Part shown: positions 3,062-53,009 of the stretch, one piece after another | Layout: every line of letters begins with the position of its first letter | How positions within the stretch are numbered: position 1 is the first letter of the stretch | From: Candidatus Nomurabacteria bacterium GW2011_GWE2_34_25 | GTDB lineage: Bacteria; Patescibacteriota; Minisyncoccia; Phycocordibacterales; UBA9973 | Direction of reading: 5' to 3' | Assembly (NCBI GenBank): GCA_000990325.1 | Contig: LBPS01000002.1 | Coordinates: 9,562-73,561, forward strand | DNA: 64,000 bases | Notes under the pieces: generated by a model | Database searches by the model: none | Told to the model about the DNA's origin: nothing | What the model saw: the letters and a program-made list of their open reading frames with translations, nothing else | Made by a program: the position numbers and the translations under genes

Positions 3062-3148
3062 GCGGAGGCGGTGAGATTCGAACTCACGGTACCGATTAAA
3101 GTACGACGGTTTAGTAAACCGTTGATTTAAACCACTCATCCACGCCTC
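3062..3148 (-). tRNA. Type-II (long variable arm) tRNA, Ser-like, with unusual anticodon loop TTACTAA (anticodon ACT)
   Basis: Minus-strand fold: GGAGGCG-TG-GAT-GAGTGGTTTAA-ATC-A-ACGGT-TTACTAA-ACCGT-long arm-GTGAG-TTCGAAT-CTCAC-CGCCTCC-G. D-loop is nearly identical to E. coli tRNA-Ser; discriminator G. Confidence 0.6.
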
Positions 3149-3283
3149 CTCACTTCGTTCGTCGGCGTGTCTTCGTGTCCTTCCGGACCCTTCCCTCAAG
3201 CTAGTGCTCACACATAGCTTGTCGGATAAAAGTATCCGAACGGATGAAATATAAAGCAGTTTACATTTCATATCCACGCCTCC
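3149..3283 (-). ncRNA. Candidate structured ncRNA just upstream of the type-II tRNA, bounded by a 12-nt direct repeat of the tRNA 5' end. GC-rich, several hairpins, including GUCC-GGAA-GGAC resembling the SRP RNA domain IV tetraloop
   Basis: ATCCACGCCTCC at 3137-3148 and 3272-3283; local GC well above flanks; hairpins TCGGATA/TATCCGA, AAGCTA/TAGCTT, GTCC-GGAA-GGAC. Confidence 0.3.
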
Positions 3284-3374: not shown

Positions 3375-3461
3375 GGAGCCGTGTCAGAGTGGTCTAACGT
3401 ACCTCTTTGCTAAAGAGGCAGGGTGTAAAAGCCCTCGCGAGTTCGAATCTCGCCGGTTCCG
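3375..3461 (+). tRNA. tRNA-Ser (anticodon GCT)
   Basis: Acceptor GGAGCCG/CGGTTCC (one G-U), anticodon stem CCTCT/AGAGG with loop TTGCTAA, long variable arm, T-arm GCGAG-TTCGAAT-CTCGC, discriminator G. Confidence 0.85.
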
Positions 3462-3551
3462 CATTAGTTATTTTACTGCAAAGTTTGACAAAAATCATAT
3501 AAAAAGTAATGTATATAAAAAAGTAAATCCTAAATTTTAAAACATATCAAT

Positions 3552-4282: not shown

Positions 4283-5581
<1,299 letters not shown>

Positions 5582-38479: not shown

Positions 38480-40156
38480 ATGAAATCATCCGTATCAAAG
38501 CTAGAGAGTAAATTATCTAACTGTAAGTATATCTTTGTAGTTGGTGGAGTTATCTCTGGCGTTGGGAAGGGAGTCGCTGCCTCTTCTATCGGCCTCCTTA
38601 TGCAGTCCAGAGGTTACAAAGTAACTTCTATAAAAATTGATCCATATATAAATATTGACGCAGGGACCATGAATCCGACAGAGCACGGAGAAGTCTTTGT
38701 GTTGGACGATGGAGATGAATGTGATCAAGATATGGGGAATTACGAGCGATTCTTAGGGGTTGATCTGTGTCGTACAAATTATATGACGACTGGTCGTGTG
38801 TATCAAGAAGTTATTCGCAAAGAGCGTAACCTAGAATACAAAGGCAAAAATGTTGAAGTTGTTCCCGATGTTCCACTTGAAGTTATTCATAGGATTAAAG
38901 AAGCAACGAGGATAACTGGTTCCGATATAACTATAATTGAAGTAGGTGGAACTGTGGGTGAATATCAAAATGTCCTATTCCTTGAAGCTGCACGTATGCT
39001 CAAAACGAAATATCCAGCTGATGTAGCCTTTGTGCTAGTTTCTTATTTGCCAGTACCTTCAAATCTAGGGGAAATGAAAACAAAACCAACTCAATACGCT
39101 TCAAGGACTTTAAACTCCGCTGGAGTTCAAGCGGATATAATAATTGCTCGTGGACCTATAGCTCTTGATAAAAAACGCAAAGAGAAGATTGCCCTATTCT
39201 GTAATGTCTCTGAAGAAAATGTCATATCTGCTCCCGATGTCAAAAGTATTTACGATATTCCAATAAATTTTGAGAAAGATAAAATGGGGGAGACTCTTGA
39301 GAGAGTCCTTAGTTTACCCAAGCGTACAGCCAATCTAACTAAATGGAAAAATTTTGTATCTAAGACGAAGAATGGTAAAGAGAAGATAAAAATAGCCGTA
39401 GTTGGAAAGTATTTTGATTCAGGTGACTTTGTCCTTTCTGATGTGTATATATCTATTCTTGAAGCATTGAAATTCTCTTCATATGAGTCAGGTGTTGGTG
39501 TAGATATTTCTTGTGTAAATTCTAAAGATTTCGAATCCAAAAAGATTCCAGTATCTATGCTAAAGAAATACGATGGAGTAATTGTTCCAGGAGGTTTTGG
39601 TGAGAGTGGAATTGAGGGGATCATCATGGCCATAAATTATGCGAGAACTCACAATATTCCTTACTTTGGACTTTGTTATGGTATGCAACTCATGGTTATA
39701 GAATATGCAAGGAATGTATTGGGCCTGAAAGATGCCAATACTCGTGAGATAAATCCAGGCTCGAAGAATCTTGTGATAGATGTTATGGAGGACCAAAAGG
39801 CTAAAATTGAAAGTAAAAATATGGGAGGTAGTATGCGTTTAGGAGCATATCCTGCCAAATTAACAAAGGGGACAGTGGCACAAAAGGCTTATGGAACATC
39901 AGAGATATCAGAGCGTCATAGACATCGCTATGAAGTCAATAATGCTTACAGGGAGGCTCTGGAGAGTGCAGGACTGGTCTTTTCAGGTCTTTCACCTGAC
40001 GGCAAGCTTTGTGAAATAGCTGAATTACCAGAAAGTAAGCACCCATTCTTCCTAGGTACCCAATTTCATCCAGAATTCAAGGCTAGACCATTAAATCCTC
40101 ATCCATTGTTTACGGCGTTTATAAAAGCATGCAAGAAATTAGGTTCTAGTAAATAG
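38480..40156 (+). CDS. pyrG: CTP synthase
   Basis: N-terminal synthetase GGVISGVGKG and C-terminal class I glutamine amidotransferase (GLCYGMQ, HRHRYE). Confidence 0.95.
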   Translation: MKSSVSKLESKLSNCKYIFVVGGVISGVGKGVAASSIGLLMQSRGYKVTSIKIDPYINIDAGTMNPTEHGEVFVLDDGDECDQDMGNYERFLGVDLCRTNYMTTGRVYQEVIRKERNLEYKGKNVEVVPDVPLEVIHRIKEATRITGSDITIIEVGGTVGEYQNVLFLEAARMLKTKYPADVAFVLVSYLPVPSNLGEMKTKPTQYASRTLNSAGVQADIIIARGPIALDKKRKEKIALFCNVSEENVISAPDVKSIYDIPINFEKDKMGETLERVLSLPKRTANLTKWKNFVSKTKNGKEKIKIAVVGKYFDSGDFVLSDVYISILEALKFSSYESGVGVDISCVNSKDFESKKIPVSMLKKYDGVIVPGGFGESGIEGIIMAINYARTHNIPYFGLCYGMQLMVIEYARNVLGLKDANTREINPGSKNLVIDVMEDQKAKIESKNMGGSMRLGAYPAKLTKGTVAQKAYGTSEISERHRHRYEVNNAYREALESAGLVFSGLSPDGKLCEIAELPESKHPFFLGTQFHPEFKARPLNPHPLFTAFIKACKKLGSSK

Positions 40157-40172
40157 TTTCTAGTGGTCAGTA

Positions 40173-40205
40173 AAAGCCCAGCCGACTTTGTCGGCTGGGC
40201 TTTTG
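40173..40205 (+). terminator. Rho-independent terminator (GCCCAGCCGAC-ttt-GTCGGCTGGGC + TTTT)
   Basis: 11-bp GC stem followed by T-run. Confidence 0.75.
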
Positions 40206-40246
40206 GATAGCATTTCTACTAGAACCTAATCACTAGAAACTAGAAC

Positions 40247-40972
40247 CTAGTTAAGTTCATCCTCCCCAGTTCTTATTTTACTATATTTTATTATTTCTAA
40301 TATCTGATCTACATCATCTGTAACTATGAACCTTTCTAGATCAGGGGCAGAGATTGTTTTGTATTTCTCTACAAATTGTTCTTCCAATATCTTTTTAATT
40401 GGATTCCAAAATTCTGTTCCGTACAAGATTATAGGAATCGGTCCTACCTTGCCAGTTTGTAAGTGAGTAAGCATTTCAAAGAATTCATACATTGTACCAG
40501 TTCCTCCAGCACAGTAGATACAAGCTTCAGTTGTGTATTGCATAGAGACTTGTCTTGCAAAGAAGAAATGAAATGGAACTTCTTTTGTCACATAAGGGTT
40601 TGTACTTTGTTCACGAGGAAGTCGAATAGTAAGACCTACTGACTCTACTCCTGCATCAAATGCTCCTTTATTAGCAGCTTCCATAAGGCCACCTCCACCA
40701 CCAGTTATAACTATATATCCTAATTCTTTAGCTATTCTATTTGCTAAATTATATGTTTTTATGTATTCAGGGTGATCGGGCTTTAATCTTGCTGAACCGT
40801 AAAAGGTAACAGAAGGTCCAATATCCTTAACAGTATCTATTCCATCACGGAATTCTTCCTGTATCATACAGAGCTTTGTTTCTTCTCCGTCTCCTCCTGT
40901 AAGAGTTATACAACCATTTTTAATATCATCTGTCGTTATGTGCCTAGGCTCATATTTTATTTCTGTAGTCAT
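40247..40972 (-). CDS. LOG-family protein paralog (TIGR00730-type)
   Basis: ITGGGGGLMEAANKGA and CAGGTGTMYEFFEMLT motifs. Confidence 0.75.
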   Translation of the reverse strand: MTTEIKYEPRHITTDDIKNGCITLTGGDGEETKLCMIQEEFRDGIDTVKDIGPSVTFYGSARLKPDHPEYIKTYNLANRIAKELGYIVITGGGGGLMEAANKGAFDAGVESVGLTIRLPREQSTNPYVTKEVPFHFFFARQVSMQYTTEACIYCAGGTGTMYEFFEMLTHLQTGKVGPIPIILYGTEFWNPIKKILEEQFVEKYKTISAPDLERFIVTDDVDQILEIIKYSKIRTGEDELN

Positions 40973-51289: not shown

Positions 51290-51832
51290 ATGAAGAAAGA
51301 TAAAAAGAGTACATTTGAAGCAATATACAAGAATGAATCGGATGCTATATTCCGATTTTGTTTGCTTCGTGTATCTAATCGCGATCAAGCCCTAGATCTC
51401 GTCCAGGAAACCTTCTTGCGTCTATGGCAAAGTTTACAGAAAGACGAAGACATTTTAAATAGTAAAGCATTTCTTTTTACCATAACTCGTCATCTAATTA
51501 TTGATTATTATCGCAAAAAGAAAAGTATTCCTTTTAAAGATATGGCTTCTACTGACGAAGAAGAGGGGTATGATCCAGCGAATGATATTACAACCGACAA
51601 TCTTATAAGTGGAATTGAGGGCAGATATCTTTTAAACAAAATAAATGAGCTTCCGCAGTCTTATAGAGAACCTCTGTATTTACGATTTGTCGAAGATTTG
51701 TCACCGCCAGAGATAGGAGAAATATTGGGGGTTTCAGCTAATGCTGCTTCGGTTCGAATTAATCGTGGACTTGAAGAACTAAGGAGGGTATCTGGTTATA
51801 GTAAGGATGATTTAAATAAGTTAAATATATGA
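51290..51832 (+). CDS. ECF-type RNA polymerase sigma factor
   Basis: Region 2 (LVQETFLRLWQ, IDYYRKK) and region 4 HTH (EIGEILGVSANAASVRINRG). Confidence 0.8.
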   Translation: MKKDKKSTFEAIYKNESDAIFRFCLLRVSNRDQALDLVQETFLRLWQSLQKDEDILNSKAFLFTITRHLIIDYYRKKKSIPFKDMASTDEEEGYDPANDITTDNLISGIEGRYLLNKINELPQSYREPLYLRFVEDLSPPEIGEILGVSANAASVRINRGLEELRRVSGYSKDDLNKLNI

Positions 51833-51952
51833 TCCCGTTAGAGATGATTTTAGTAAGATTACGGGATTATAAAAAAATAAGTTTTGTTTATATTATTAGA
51901 TAAATTTAATTAAGGTACGTCCCATCTAATGAGGGACTATCTCTAACGGGAT
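51832..51952 (+). promoter_or_regulatory. Long-range 14-bp perfect inverted repeat (ATCCCGTTAGAGAT / ATCTCTAACGGGAT) joining the sigma stop codon to the anti-sigma start codon, with an internal competing ACGGGAT copy and a GTCCC/GGGAC hairpin
   Basis: Left arm begins 2 nt after the TGA of the sigma gene; right arm ends in ...GGGATG, the ATG of the downstream gene. Confidence 0.5.
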
Positions 51953-53009
51953 GAATGATAAAAAATTAAAAAATGGAATAGATGAAATAAAAAATATTGT
52001 CATGACTAATGCTGAGAAAAAGCATATAATTGATAATATTTTAAGTACTTCTAATGTAAATCCAAAGGCAATAAAGAGCCCTTGGTCTTTTTATTCATTT
52101 ATACTAATAACTAGAAAGAGTCAATTAGTTTATTATATAGTAATTCCCTTGATCATACTTCTTTCAAGTGGAGGAGTAGTTTTTGCATCACAAGATAGTC
52201 TACCAGACAGTATTTTGTATCCACTAAAGGTTAATGTTGTTGAACCAATAGGTGGAGCTCTGAAATTTTCTTTAAATAAAAAGGCAAAATATGAAAGTAG
52301 CCTAGCTACCAAGCGTCTCGTTGAGGCTGAGACCTTAGTGAATCAAGGAAAACTTGATAAAATAAAAGAAGACAAAATAAATAGCTTACTAACTAAACAC
52401 ACCAATGCTTTAAATCTTGCTATCAATGAATCTACTTCAGAAGATGTAAATGAGGAAATGAGTACGGTTGCTACAGATTTTAGGGCGCAAATGAATGCTC
52501 ATGCAAAGGTTCTAGACGTTCTTTCAAATGAGAAAGAATCCAAGAAAGAAAAAAATATAGAGATAGAAAAAGAAACAGAAATAGAAACAAAAGCAAAAGC
52601 AGAAGCAGATATTTCTGATATCAAAATATCAAACACAGCAAGGTTAAGTGCGGATAAGATTAAAGATAGTTCAAATAATAAAAATGATAAAAAAATAAAA
52701 AATTTCAAGGAAAAAAAGGACAAGGTTAGATTTATTGTTGAAGATGCGGACAAGAATATGAATTCAGTAATAGTAAATGACAAAACAACGAATGATCCTG
52801 TATCAGAAGATTCTTATAAAAAGCTAGATCAGGCAAAAGCTTATCTTTATGATGCAGATAAGAAAGATGAAGAGGGGAAGCATGAGGAGGCTTATACTTC
52901 CTTGTTAGATTCTCTAGTTTCAGCCAAAGAAGCCGAAATTCTTCTAAAAGAGGGTCAAAAAATTGAGAAAAATAAGGAGATTATGAATTTAATAGAAATA
53001 GACGATTGA
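51951..53009 (+). CDS. Putative membrane anti-sigma factor (DUF5667-like extracytoplasmic domain, K/E-rich coiled-coil tail)
   Basis: Short cytoplasmic N-terminus, single TM, then SQDSLPDSILYPLK...; positioned right after the ECF sigma gene. Confidence 0.4.
   Translation: MNDKKLKNGIDEIKNIVMTNAEKKHIIDNILSTSNVNPKAIKSPWSFYSFILITRKSQLVYYIVIPLIILLSSGGVVFASQDSLPDSILYPLKVNVVEPIGGALKFSLNKKAKYESSLATKRLVEAETLVNQGKLDKIKEDKINSLLTKHTNALNLAINESTSEDVNEEMSTVATDFRAQMNAHAKVLDVLSNEKESKKEKNIEIEKETEIETKAKAEADISDIKISNTARLSADKIKDSSNNKNDKKIKNFKEKKDKVRFIVEDADKNMNSVIVNDKTTNDPVSEDSYKKLDQAKAYLYDADKKDEEGKHEEAYTSLLDSLVSAKEAEILLKEGQKIEKNKEIMNLIEIDD

Follow-up and report, generated by a model that had tools for sequence, protein, structure and literature searches.

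The window, by which we mean the whole stretch of 64 kb that was analyzed, contains a gene pair in which an ECF-type sigma factor, recognizable by its regions 2 and 4, is followed by a membrane protein with a DUF5667 domain. The same sigma protein is found in the databases as 'RNA polymerase sigma factor SigW, Candidatus Nomurabacteria bacterium GW2011_GWF2_35_66', and the exact downstream protein is a called gene in NCBI assemblies, with an N-terminus, MNDKKLKNGIDE, that is co-linear with relatives in which the intervening element described below is lacking. We assume that the DUF5667 protein is an anti-sigma factor, and refer to it as anti-sigma-like. The following features were assigned, with the evidence in brackets.

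51290..51832, + strand: gene for an ECF-type sigma factor, 180 aa (Pfam Sigma70_r2, E=1.1e-13; Sigma70_r4_2, E=3.4e-12)
51830..51832, + strand: left copy of the duplicated target (TGA), the stop codon of the sigma gene (empty-site comparison with L083)
51833..51951, + strand: 119-bp non-coding element, very probably mobile (MITE), TCCCGTTAGAGAT...ATCTCTAACGGGA (gap in relatives, family copies, family profile)
51833..51845, + strand: left terminal inverted repeat, 13 nt (repeat finder; same as the left end of the GIY-YIG-encoding elements)
51861..51867, + strand: internal partial copy of the right end, ACGGGAT (repeat finder)
51919..51937, + strand: subterminal GC-rich hairpin, GTCCC-N9-GGGAC (RNA fold; family-wide hairpin)
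51939..51951, + strand: right terminal inverted repeat, 13 nt, ending in the A with which the rebuilt ATG begins (repeat finder, family copies)
51952..51954, + strand: right copy of the target duplication (TGA), forming with 51951 the ATG of the downstream gene (empty-site comparison)
51951..53009, + strand: gene for an anti-sigma-like membrane protein, 352 aa, DUF5667 (Pfam DUF5667, E=1.1e-6, 29.4 bits at a cut-off of 27)

As evidenced by the repeat finder, the spacer between the two genes is enclosed by a perfect inverted repeat, as an earlier note on this DNA had claimed: the arms at 51832-51845 (ATCCCGTTAGAGAT) and 51939-51952 (ATCTCTAACGGGAT) are 14 nt long, 100% complementary and 93 nt apart. 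The left arm, which that note had placed 2 nt after the sigma stop codon, begins at the last base of the stop itself (TGA, 51830-51832), and the 14-bp arm consists of this flanking A at 51832 and the 13-nt left terminal inverted repeat. The right arm does run into the downstream start codon: its last two bases are the first two of the anti-sigma ATG (51951-53). A third, partial copy of the repeat exists as well (arms 51828-51838 and 51861-51871, 11 nt, 91% complementary), and its ACGGGAT motif, also present in the same-subfamily copies L113, L114, L129, L158, L174, L020 and L031, could form an alternative hairpin with the left repeat. The GTCCC-N9-GGGAC hairpin was correctly described as lying ahead of the right arm; at 51919-51937, it ends 1 nt before the 13-nt right repeat and 3 nt before its 11-nt core. 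The 119 bp contain in-frame stops and no open reading frame of 50 aa or more, and they are oriented such that the hairpin end adjoins the downstream gene.

In the closest relative (L083, sigma factor 86% identical) the two genes overlap as ATGA with no spacer and read ...GTATGAATGAT. With this related organism, and not an isogenic strain, as the reference for the empty site, ...AATGTATGAATGAT in L083 corresponds to ...AATATATGA[119 bp]TGAATGAT in the window, which has 122 extra bases bounded by TGA on either side. The element is likewise absent from L084, L085 and L088, where spacers measure 1-5 nt and the flanks are otherwise co-linear, and the alignments of L083, L084 and L085 show a clean gap of element length. 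Of 80 orthologous genome loci, all but four have a downstream start that overlaps the sigma stop or is no farther than about 25 nt from it; a spacer of the window type is missing at about 70 orthologous loci, and most orthologues have the ATGA overlap that was lost in the window by the insertion. The element thus hit the ATGA stop/start overlap of the sigma and anti-sigma-like pair and duplicated the TGA, the left copy remaining as the sigma stop while the last A of the element and the right copy now form the anti-sigma ATG. The repeat arms touch both the stop and the start codon because the target duplication rebuilt both.

A metagenome scan returned at least 120 further contigs that match TCCCGTTAGAG-N82-112-CTCTAACGGGA. 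The copies are followed by TG in 117 of 124 cases, rebuilding an ATG, and 77 of the 124 retain a perfect 4-nt duplication (ATGNN/TGNN), as opposed to the 3 nt (TGA) duplicated in the window; the target consensus is A-T-G-R-A, with insertion at A|TGRA. Reading frames of at least 80 aa are opened by 98 of 115 rebuilt ATGs (85%), compared with an expectation of 43% at non-intragenic ATGRA sites (p about 1e-20), and the orientation with respect to the host gene is biased 87:13. The downstream proteins include S19, L9, SSB, IF3, Adk, Def and MnmA with their canonical N-termini, and in nine of ten cases they are called genes that start at the rebuilt ATG, the named ones originating from Patescibacteria or Nomurabacteria; the hosts include housekeeping genes, rpsS, ssb and infC for example, and genes inside ribosomal-protein operons. 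Further copies occur in the flanks at a density of about one per 48 kb, and in L113 there is another copy whose 14-bp repeat is exactly the same and which belongs, judging by the shared accession series, to the same assemblies as the genes of the window. We thus find a large family in the genomes of CPR bacteria (Patescibacteria) that sits at A|TGRA of true start codons, mostly in one orientation, although part of this start-codon bias could reflect selection after insertion and not targeting. No more than 8 of 80 copies can be read through in frame. The subterminal hairpin keeps its position throughout the family, its stem occurring in 60 different sequences in 87 copies, and in a subset selected for its geometry six of seven pairs carry double changes, as in covariation. 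The repeat pair had no match in viral contigs. Within the window the family profile matches only at 51831-51956 (E=5e-17), and neither exact or near-exact matching, with up to 2 mismatches allowed in the 14-mer, nor blastn-short detected another copy in the 64 kb.

Other kinds of element were considered for this family. Integron attC sites, REP/RAYT and IS200/IS605 ends were rejected, as the order of attC core motifs differs, the duplications are true ones and the host genes are housekeeping genes. A mobile promoter found no support either, although one may exist: in 87 oriented copies the two strands, sense and antisense, do not differ in how often -10-like and -35/-10-like motifs occur, and a consensus scan of the window copy revealed no internal promoter.

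Longer members of the family, of about 278 bp (275-279 bp), have the same ends, target and orientation and encode a GIY-YIG nuclease of 83-84 aa (Pfam GIY-YIG, E=1e-16). Eight long insertions were read (L156, L174, L211, L214, L220, L224 and two in L233); the terminal repeats are the same in all of them, and the duplication is perfect in six. The reading frame is co-directional with the host gene. It begins after the left repeat, or in some cases in frame at the ATG of the host itself, and the host ATG lies 4-5 nt past its stop, a TAA within the right repeat, 4 nt ahead of the rebuilt ATG. The protein has 2,636 homologues in CPR bacteria, of which the top 120 are at least 78% identical; the C-terminus NRLGASYL, encoded by the hairpin strand and the right repeat, is present in 108 of these 120, and homologues in a 92-aa form begin with M[NDS]PVRD, that is, with the host ATG and the left repeat. 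Note that such chimeric starts ('MNPVRD...') have already been made by gene callers. The gene evolves with a dN/dS of 0.06-0.24 (about 0.1) at dS values of 0.2-1.2. At the position of the MITE hairpin the long elements have a 9-bp long-range stem (GGAAGCGCC / GGCGCTTCC) that is invariant at synonymous sites. The closest solved structure is 1ZG2, and the protein comprises the catalytic domain only, without a DNA-binding domain. GIY-YIG genes of CPR bacteria have been noted as horizontally transferred (PMC12455944), and they occur in non-intron rRNA insertions of this group (PMC11270868).

The 64-kb window itself contains no GIY-YIG gene. Between the window copy and the long elements only the ends align, and homology of the interior is not demonstrable; as the interior does not align convincingly, 'deletion derivative' is a probable description of the short elements as a family rather than of the window copy itself. 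The insertion, the same ends and targets and the coding relatives therefore identify the feature in the window, with considerable confidence, as a 119-bp non-autonomous mobile element (MITE) of this CPR family, and the inverted repeat as its terminal inverted repeats. The remark in the earlier note that the arrangement is MITE-like was right, given 13-nt terminal inverted repeats, a TGA duplication and dispersed copies.

A strong RNA structure is predicted for this locus. The segment 51815-51975 folds with -39.4 kcal/mol (z = -5.1), a value that none of 200 shuffled sequences reached, and the A and U of the AUG are predicted to be unpaired with probabilities of only 0.007 and 0.04. The claim that a long-range stem sequesters the anti-sigma start codon is thus borne out at the level of the fold prediction. 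The predicted cost of opening the initiation region is 14.2 kcal/mol for free mRNA and falls to 9.4 kcal/mol once a ribosome occupies the sigma stop. The insertion would have converted a 4-nt translational overlap into a 118-nt spacer with a stem that would bury the AUG, and translation of the anti-sigma gene would then probably depend on ribosomes that finish the sigma gene and terminate at the foot of the stem. On the basis of these models the ratio of sigma to anti-sigma factor may have been shifted by the insertion, and we infer that sequestration of the start codon is a by-product of the latter and not the function of a purpose-built regulator.

Several other explanations of the repeat and its structure were weighed against an insertion. 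The window has perfect 14-nt inverted repeats at about a dozen loci, most of them terminator hairpins with short loops; the repeat by itself is therefore neither rare nor unique here, and it might be taken for a chance product of an AT-rich intergenic region. First-order Markov simulations, however, yield 0.23 such repeats per 64 kb with arms up to 150 nt apart. As the same pair, at the same spacing and with conserved flanks, recurs in at least 120 other contigs, chance is ruled out for all practical purposes. The spacer had also been described as built as an attenuator or riboregulator, a dedicated cis-regulatory RNA that ties translation of the anti-sigma gene to translation of the sigma gene or to a trans factor. 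The strong stem predicted over the AUG, the left arm abutting the stop codon, where a terminating ribosome would melt it, and the alternative hairpin with the internal ACGGGAT all fit such a device, but it is missing in the closest relatives and at the roughly 70 orthologous loci, and the very same terminal repeats stand ahead of unrelated genes, housekeeping genes included, on the metagenomic contigs, the dispersal that the earlier note had named as the mark of a MITE rather than a regulator. Rfam gave no family at gathering score (only tRNAs in the whole window) and only noise at E up to 10 for 51700-52100. The second sigma/anti-sigma pair, to which comparison had been suggested, has an unstructured spacer of 36 nt and no similar hairpin, and the contact with stop and start codon is fully explained by the target duplication. 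We consider a dedicated regulator highly improbable. An element that inserted as described and was since exapted, its stem kept because it couples or tunes anti-sigma relative to sigma translation, deserves more weight, yet we still regard it as improbable. At the corresponding junction of two orthologous loci (L020 and L031) there is a relative in decay, about 65 nt long, whose left repeat contains the sigma stop and whose arms still pair via a G.U pair and one compensatory change from G-C to A-U between the loci; moreover, the ribosome on the stop codon is predicted to cut the cost of opening the start region by about 5 kcal/mol, and the element is tolerated ahead of essential genes such as rpsS. 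But the compensatory change is anecdotal, resting on two old copies, and the mismatches in the terminal stem across the family give no clear signal of selection on an RNA strand: the G.U versus A.C counts in the 11-nt core are 5 and 0, too few to matter, and beyond the core they are dominated by subfamily differences. The window copy, furthermore, is young, being perfect and absent from a relative with an 86% identical sigma factor.

As to how the family moves, the short elements would be derivatives without an ORF, mobilised in trans by the machinery of the long elements, most probably the GIY-YIG protein. A long element at a start codon would borrow the transcription and translation signals of its host, and the host gene would stay translatable by coupling. 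This would amount to an undescribed class, a unit of about 278 bp with an 83-aa GIY-YIG nuclease as its sole gene, terminal inverted repeats and a 4-nt duplication, which inserts at A|TGRA of start codons, borrows promoter, ribosome-binding site and ATG of the host and returns translation via a stop 4 nt before the rebuilt ATG, the hairpin in the window being its ORF-less derivative. We put this forward as a tentative proposal that may well be wrong. Searches of the literature for the repeat sequence, for MITE combined with CPR, Patescibacteria or start codon, and for GIY-YIG combined with inverted repeats, duplication, MITE, CPR or start codon did not find a description of such an element; GIY-YIG genes of CPR bacteria are touched on there only as a side remark. 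The unit is smaller than any autonomous insertion sequence known to us, and to our knowledge GIY-YIG nucleases only hydrolyse DNA and do not transfer strands; the protein could be cargo rather than the mobility enzyme. Alternatively, an ordinary MITE may be moved by an unsampled conventional transposase, for example of the DDE type, with the GIY-YIG gene as cargo or the long elements themselves non-autonomous. Terminal inverted repeats with a short duplication of fixed length are a hallmark of DDE transposition, the 83-aa protein has no DNA-binding domain, and strand transfer is not known from GIY-YIG enzymes. Nevertheless, a search by repeat spacing only, in about 1.3 Mb of fetched loci, found no transposase-like frame within these repeats, nor between distant pairs of them, but did surface the GIY-YIG elements. 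The GIY-YIG frame also fills the long element, evolves under strong purifying selection in its thousands of copies and shares codons with both repeats, as is typical of an element's own gene. We judge a conventional transposase to be somewhat unlikely.

For the locus in the window, an insertion event takes the place of an attractive regulatory story. As the ATGA coupling is lost and a stem of about -39 kcal/mol is predicted to enclose the site of anti-sigma initiation, the ECF system may be mis-set or re-tuned in this lineage. Beyond the single locus, a family in CPR bacteria occupies the exact start codons of housekeeping genes, rebuilds the ATG and carries a structurally conserved hairpin, which bears on the minimal size of a selfish element, on whether a GIY-YIG nuclease can drive transposon-like spread, and on the organisation and annotation of translation starts in reduced CPR genomes. 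It also suggests what some of the orphan GIY-YIG proteins in the large UPF0213/YhbQ-like family may do, and this can be tested. If the proposal of a GIY-YIG-driven class were true, GIY-YIG would join the DDE, HUH, serine, tyrosine and Cas1 enzymes as a driver of transposon-like mobility, and hundreds of CPR housekeeping genes would be translated downstream of such elements.

MITEs inside bacterial transcription units are known as Correia/NEMIS elements in Neisseria, ERIC/IRU in enterobacteria and RUP in pneumococcus. The CPR family resembles them in being non-coding at 100-150 bp, in having terminal inverted repeats and duplicating a short target, in its many dispersed copies, and in forming long mRNA hairpins between co-transcribed genes, a position from which such elements can change the expression of neighbors depending on orientation. 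It differs in having no sequence relation to any of them, in targeting A|TGRA at start codons and not TA, in rebuilding the ATG from the duplication and the terminal A, in its 87:13 orientation bias, and in having as coding partner a 278-bp GIY-YIG gene instead of a DDE insertion sequence. The GIY-YIG catalytic domain of the long relatives is shared with the stand-alone UPF0213/YhbQ proteins and with free-standing GIY-YIG homing endonuclease genes (T4 seg, I-TevI-type), which are likewise small genes of selfish appearance, squeezed in between host genes with little disturbance. Homing endonucleases, however, have a DNA-binding domain and spread to the cognate allele by repair, without terminal inverted repeats or target duplications, whereas the CPR elements show both features, are found at hundreds of unrelated genes and include ORF-less derivatives, the window copy with no reading frame among them. 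The Rickettsia palindromic elements (RPE) are also small palindromic mobile elements at or within genes of reduced genomes that leave these genes intact, but they are translated in frame inside proteins, while the CPR element, rarely open in frame, restores the host frame downstream. Translational coupling via long-range mRNA pairing is known from the infC-rpmI-rplT operon of E. coli and from the genes of phage MS2. As in these systems, the downstream start in the window would be sequestered by upstream pairing and is predicted to be opened by upstream translation; unlike those conserved and selected structures, the one described here was made in a single insertion step and is absent from relatives.

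The element under study lies between two genes of the window:

51290-51832, ECF-type sigma gene (Sigma70_r2 and r4_2)
51951-53009, gene for a membrane protein of 352 aa (DUF5667), downstream of sigma

The sigma protein belongs to the CPR organism Candidatus Nomurabacteria bacterium GW2011_GWF2_35_66, and the spacer between both genes measures 118 nt. As stated in the earlier note, this spacer is bracketed by a perfect 14-bp inverted repeat, which the repeat finder places at 51832-51845 and 51939-51952 with 93 nt separating the arms. The left arm opens on the final base of the sigma TGA and not 2 nt after the stop codon, as had been described, while the right arm does run into the anti-sigma start codon, closing on the A and T of its ATG. 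The third partial copy (51861-51871, able to pair with 51828-51838) and the GTCCC-N9-GGGAC hairpin (51919-51937) reported there are also present. The RNA of this region folds with -39.4 kcal/mol (z = -5.1), the A and U of the anti-sigma AUG are predicted to be paired nearly always, and the predicted cost of opening the initiation region is 14.2 kcal/mol in free mRNA versus 9.4 kcal/mol with a ribosome on the sigma stop.

Other repeats were observed in the window. A long inverted repeat with about 28 nt per arm (AGAGAAGACGGAGAATATTAAAAATAAAC / GTTTATTTTTAACATTCTCCGTCTTCT) and a spacer of about 50 nt occupies positions 27-135, just upstream of a terminator-like hairpin and a tRNA-Ile (219-293, anticodon TAT according to ARAGORN); it may represent a further small mobile element or else a structured RNA. 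At 40138-40250, a strong terminator hairpin between two convergent genes is flanked by a perfect inverted repeat of 14 nt (ATTAGGTTCTAGTA), accompanied by additional CTAGAAAC/CTAGAACC repeats. ARAGORN also called a tRNA-Ser with anticodon ACT at 3062-3149, adjoining tRNA-Ser(GCT) at 3375-3462. An A34 serine tRNA would be unusual for bacteria, and the call may be a miscall.

The spacer was compared with 80 orthologous genome loci and with the metagenome loci of the four closest sigma homologues. In nearly all fetched loci the downstream gene overlaps the sigma stop or begins within about 25 nt, and spacers above 50 nt occur in four of them only. The junction of the closest relative (locus L083, sigma 86% identical) reads ...AAATGTATGAATGAT, with the sigma TGA overlapping the downstream ATG; the N-terminus encoded from there, MNDKKLKNGIDE..., matches its counterpart in the window. 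The window junction reads ...AAATATATGA[TCCCGTTAGAGAT ... ATCTCTAACGGGA]TGAATGAT, the bracketed part being the element, and the multiple alignment shows a single clean gap of element size in L083 and two further sigma loci, L084 and L085. The spacer of the window is thus not ancestral but stems from an insertion of 119 bp (51833-51951), which has perfect terminal inverted repeats of 13 bp and is accompanied by a duplication of TGA. Of the two TGA copies the left one is still the sigma stop, and the terminal A of the element together with the right TG(A) forms the rebuilt anti-sigma ATG. It is because of this geometry that the arms touch stop and start codons, and the two TGA copies supply the fourteenth base pair, one contributing its A and the other its T.

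Two Nomurabacteria-like genomes carry a decayed relative of the element family, about 65 nt long, at the same sigma/anti-sigma junction (L020:3008-3072 and L031:1853-1918). Here the sigma stop, TAG or TAA, has come to lie inside the left repeat, and the arms still pair, with a G.U pair and one compensatory change between both loci. Such insertions could possibly become co-opted as coupling devices, a point on which two sequences prove nothing. Another orthologous junction, L071:811-911, holds a 101-nt spacer with unrelated repeats of its own (GTTAACTGTTGACC ... GGTCAACAGTTAA), and this may be a different small insertion.

The metagenome collection was scanned for TCCCGTTAGAG-N(82-112)-CTCTAACGGGA, and at least 120 contigs matched this pair of repeats. 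The matches listed contain 124 elements of 105-132 nt, and although the pattern left the flanks unspecified, flanks and positions are strongly patterned. Among these matches, TG directly follows the element in 117 of 124 cases, the terminal A completing an ATG; a perfect ATGNN...TGNN duplication is found in 77 of 124, and the flank consensus is A-T-G-(A/G)-A. In 98 of 115 listed cases an ORF of 80 aa or more begins at the rebuilt ATG, versus the 43% expected for random insertion among the non-intragenic ATGRA sites of the same contigs (p about 1e-20). The genes downstream encode common housekeeping proteins whose N-termini are canonical, including S19 (twice), L9, SSB (twice), IF3, adenylate kinase, deformylase, MnmA and ProS; nine of ten that were checked are public called genes beginning at exactly the rebuilt ATG, and the named ones among these are from Patescibacteria or Nomurabacteria. 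On two independent contigs (L098:548-669 and L172:551-670) a short element sits exactly between rplB and rpsS in a ribosomal-protein operon, in direct contact with the stop codon of rplB and the ATG of rpsS, in the same geometry as in the window.

Searched with a family profile, the 64-kb window yields one copy, and the sequences flanking the metagenomic copies yield roughly one more per 48 kb. In viral contigs none was found. One copy, on contig L113, has the identical 14-bp repeat and lies upstream of a small membrane protein. As the NCBI accessions of this protein belong to the same three assemblies as the window's proteins, at least two copies are very probable for the window genome. Tandem arrangements, with one element placed on the ATG that another had rebuilt, occur in L156:6843-7243, L138:4818-5022 and L201 (about 4640-4784). 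A sister subfamily (L124:2864-6471, also L106, L107, L149 and L159) has the ends TCCCG/CCCCGTTAGAG...CTCTAACGGGA/G and the duplication TTTA. Its members lie within the 5' part of the coding sequence of tandem genes for type IV pilin-like proteins, at GGA|TTTA, where the codons specify the Gly|Phe site of prepilin cleavage. A Shine-Dalgarno sequence and an ATG come with the element, as does a leader (e.g. MVILGKKCEKRSLTG) fused in frame to the mature FTxLEL... sequence; the pilin thus seems to receive a new prepilin leader from the element.

The regulatory reading of the earlier note, which likened the spacer to an attenuator or riboregulator, is rejected, as relatives lack the spacer and the element recurs before unrelated genes. 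A dedicated regulator was dropped in view of the element-free orthologues, a search of Rfam that returned no matching family, and the second sigma/anti-sigma pair suggested for comparison, whose 36-nt spacer is unstructured (z = -0.2). The MITE-like character offered there as an alternative is upheld by the terminal repeats, the TGA duplication and the occurrence on at least 120 contigs. The window feature is a MITE of the start-codon family, and every defining feature of a MITE that could be tested is present in it.

The short elements are asymmetric, with a GC-rich hairpin just inside one repeat, in most copies ending 3 nt from the 11-nt core. The hairpin-side repeat adjoins the host gene in 87 copies versus 13. 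Among the 87 copies there are 60 different stem sequences, and double compensatory changes occur at 6 of 7 hairpin pairs in a subset picked for uniform geometry. Since folding was the basis on which this subset was picked, its 100% pairing follows from the choice; the stem diversity does not. Several short elements retain the stem GGAAGCG/CGCTTCC of the long elements.

Long elements came to light in a search for unpaired repeats: L156 and L174 each contain an element of about 280 bp that has the same ends as the short ones and carries an ORF for a GIY-YIG catalytic domain (Pfam E = 1e-16 and 5e-11), whose closest solved structure is the orphan UPF0213 protein BH0048. A protein search yielded 2,636 homologues (E up to 1e-5), of which the top 120 all have 83-92 aa, are at least 78% identical and originate from Nomurabacteria, Paceibacterota, Woesebacteria and other Patescibacteria. 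The protein ends are encoded by the element's own repeats. The C-terminus NRLGASYL, present in 108 of the best 120, is encoded by GGC GCT TCC TAT CTC TAA, made up of the hairpin's 3' strand and the right repeat, and the 92-aa forms start with M(N/D/S)PVRD, the host ATG, two bases and the left repeat in frame. In matches P0172, P0181, P0217, P0220 and others the public gene calls start at the host ATG and continue through the left repeat (M[NDS]PVRD...), and annotation pipelines therefore yield chimeric N-termini at such sites.

Eight independent long insertions were read (L156, L174, L211, L214, L220, L224 and two neighbouring ones in L233). All eight measure 275-279 bp, end in TCCCGTTAGAGAT and CCTATCTCTAACGGGA (with one extra base in some), carry an ORF co-directional with the host gene and have the host ATG 4-5 nt past the ORF stop; six show a perfect ATGRA/TGRA duplication. 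At L233:727-1465 the two elements, both full-length (dS 0.21), sit on the start codons of adjacent genes. Strong purifying selection acts on the ORF (dN/dS 0.06-0.24 at dS 0.2-1.2). Within it, the RKR codons (CGG AAG CGC C) and the GAS codons (GGC GCT TCC) are complementary and form a 9-bp long-range stem, invariant including synonymous sites in every copy read, while neighbouring codons vary (dS elsewhere 0.5-1.2; L211, L214, L220, L224, L233, L174). This suggests a nucleic-acid-level constraint within the nuclease coding sequence, and the stem takes the hairpin position of the short elements. Because ends, target, duplication, orientation and subterminal stem are common to both forms, we infer at the family level that the short elements are ORF-less derivatives of the long ones; the window copy aligns with the long form at the ends only, a common situation among MITEs.

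A long element that inserts at A|TGRA in host-gene orientation would gain the host promoter and ribosome-binding site, and some copies would also take over the host ATG. With the element TAA 4 nt before the rebuilt ATG, the host gene may be translated via termination-reinitiation or coupling, which would explain tolerance by essential genes. The GIY-YIG protein is the obvious candidate for an enzyme cutting target and element ends, and a 4-nt staggered cut would yield the duplication. To our knowledge, DNA hydrolysis is the only known activity of GIY-YIG enzymes. A separate, unsampled transposase that moves the elements is a serious rival. The subterminal stem, kept by covariation in non-coding copies, is presumably a cis signal, either for the enzyme or for translation hand-over.

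In the window, a spacer with a stem predicted to hide the AUG now stands in place of the ancestral ATGA coupling. Given this stem and the two opening costs, anti-sigma synthesis is probably still coupled to sigma translation, in weakened form, and this weakening is a by-product of the insertion and not design. Scanning the window copy and family copies for promoter motifs gave no evidence of an internal promoter.

GIY-YIG genes of CPR bacteria have been noted as horizontally transferred (PMC12455944) and as located in non-intron rRNA insertions (PMC11270868). The full text of open-access papers and preprints gave no account of an element of this kind, and an earlier description elsewhere is possible; the family is apparently undescribed, with unusual properties. 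That it constitutes a new class of GIY-YIG-driven, start-codon-specific mobile element is a tentative proposal that we consider somewhat improbable. Like Correia and ERIC elements, its members form hairpins within operon transcripts, but they differ in their start-codon target, the rebuilt ATG, the orientation bias and, above all, the GIY-YIG coding partner. With free-standing GIY-YIG homing endonuclease genes the long element shares the enzyme family and the unobtrusive placement. It nevertheless falls outside their definition, because it is devoid of a DNA-binding domain, has terminal repeats and duplications, occupies hundreds of unrelated sites and has ORF-less derivatives.
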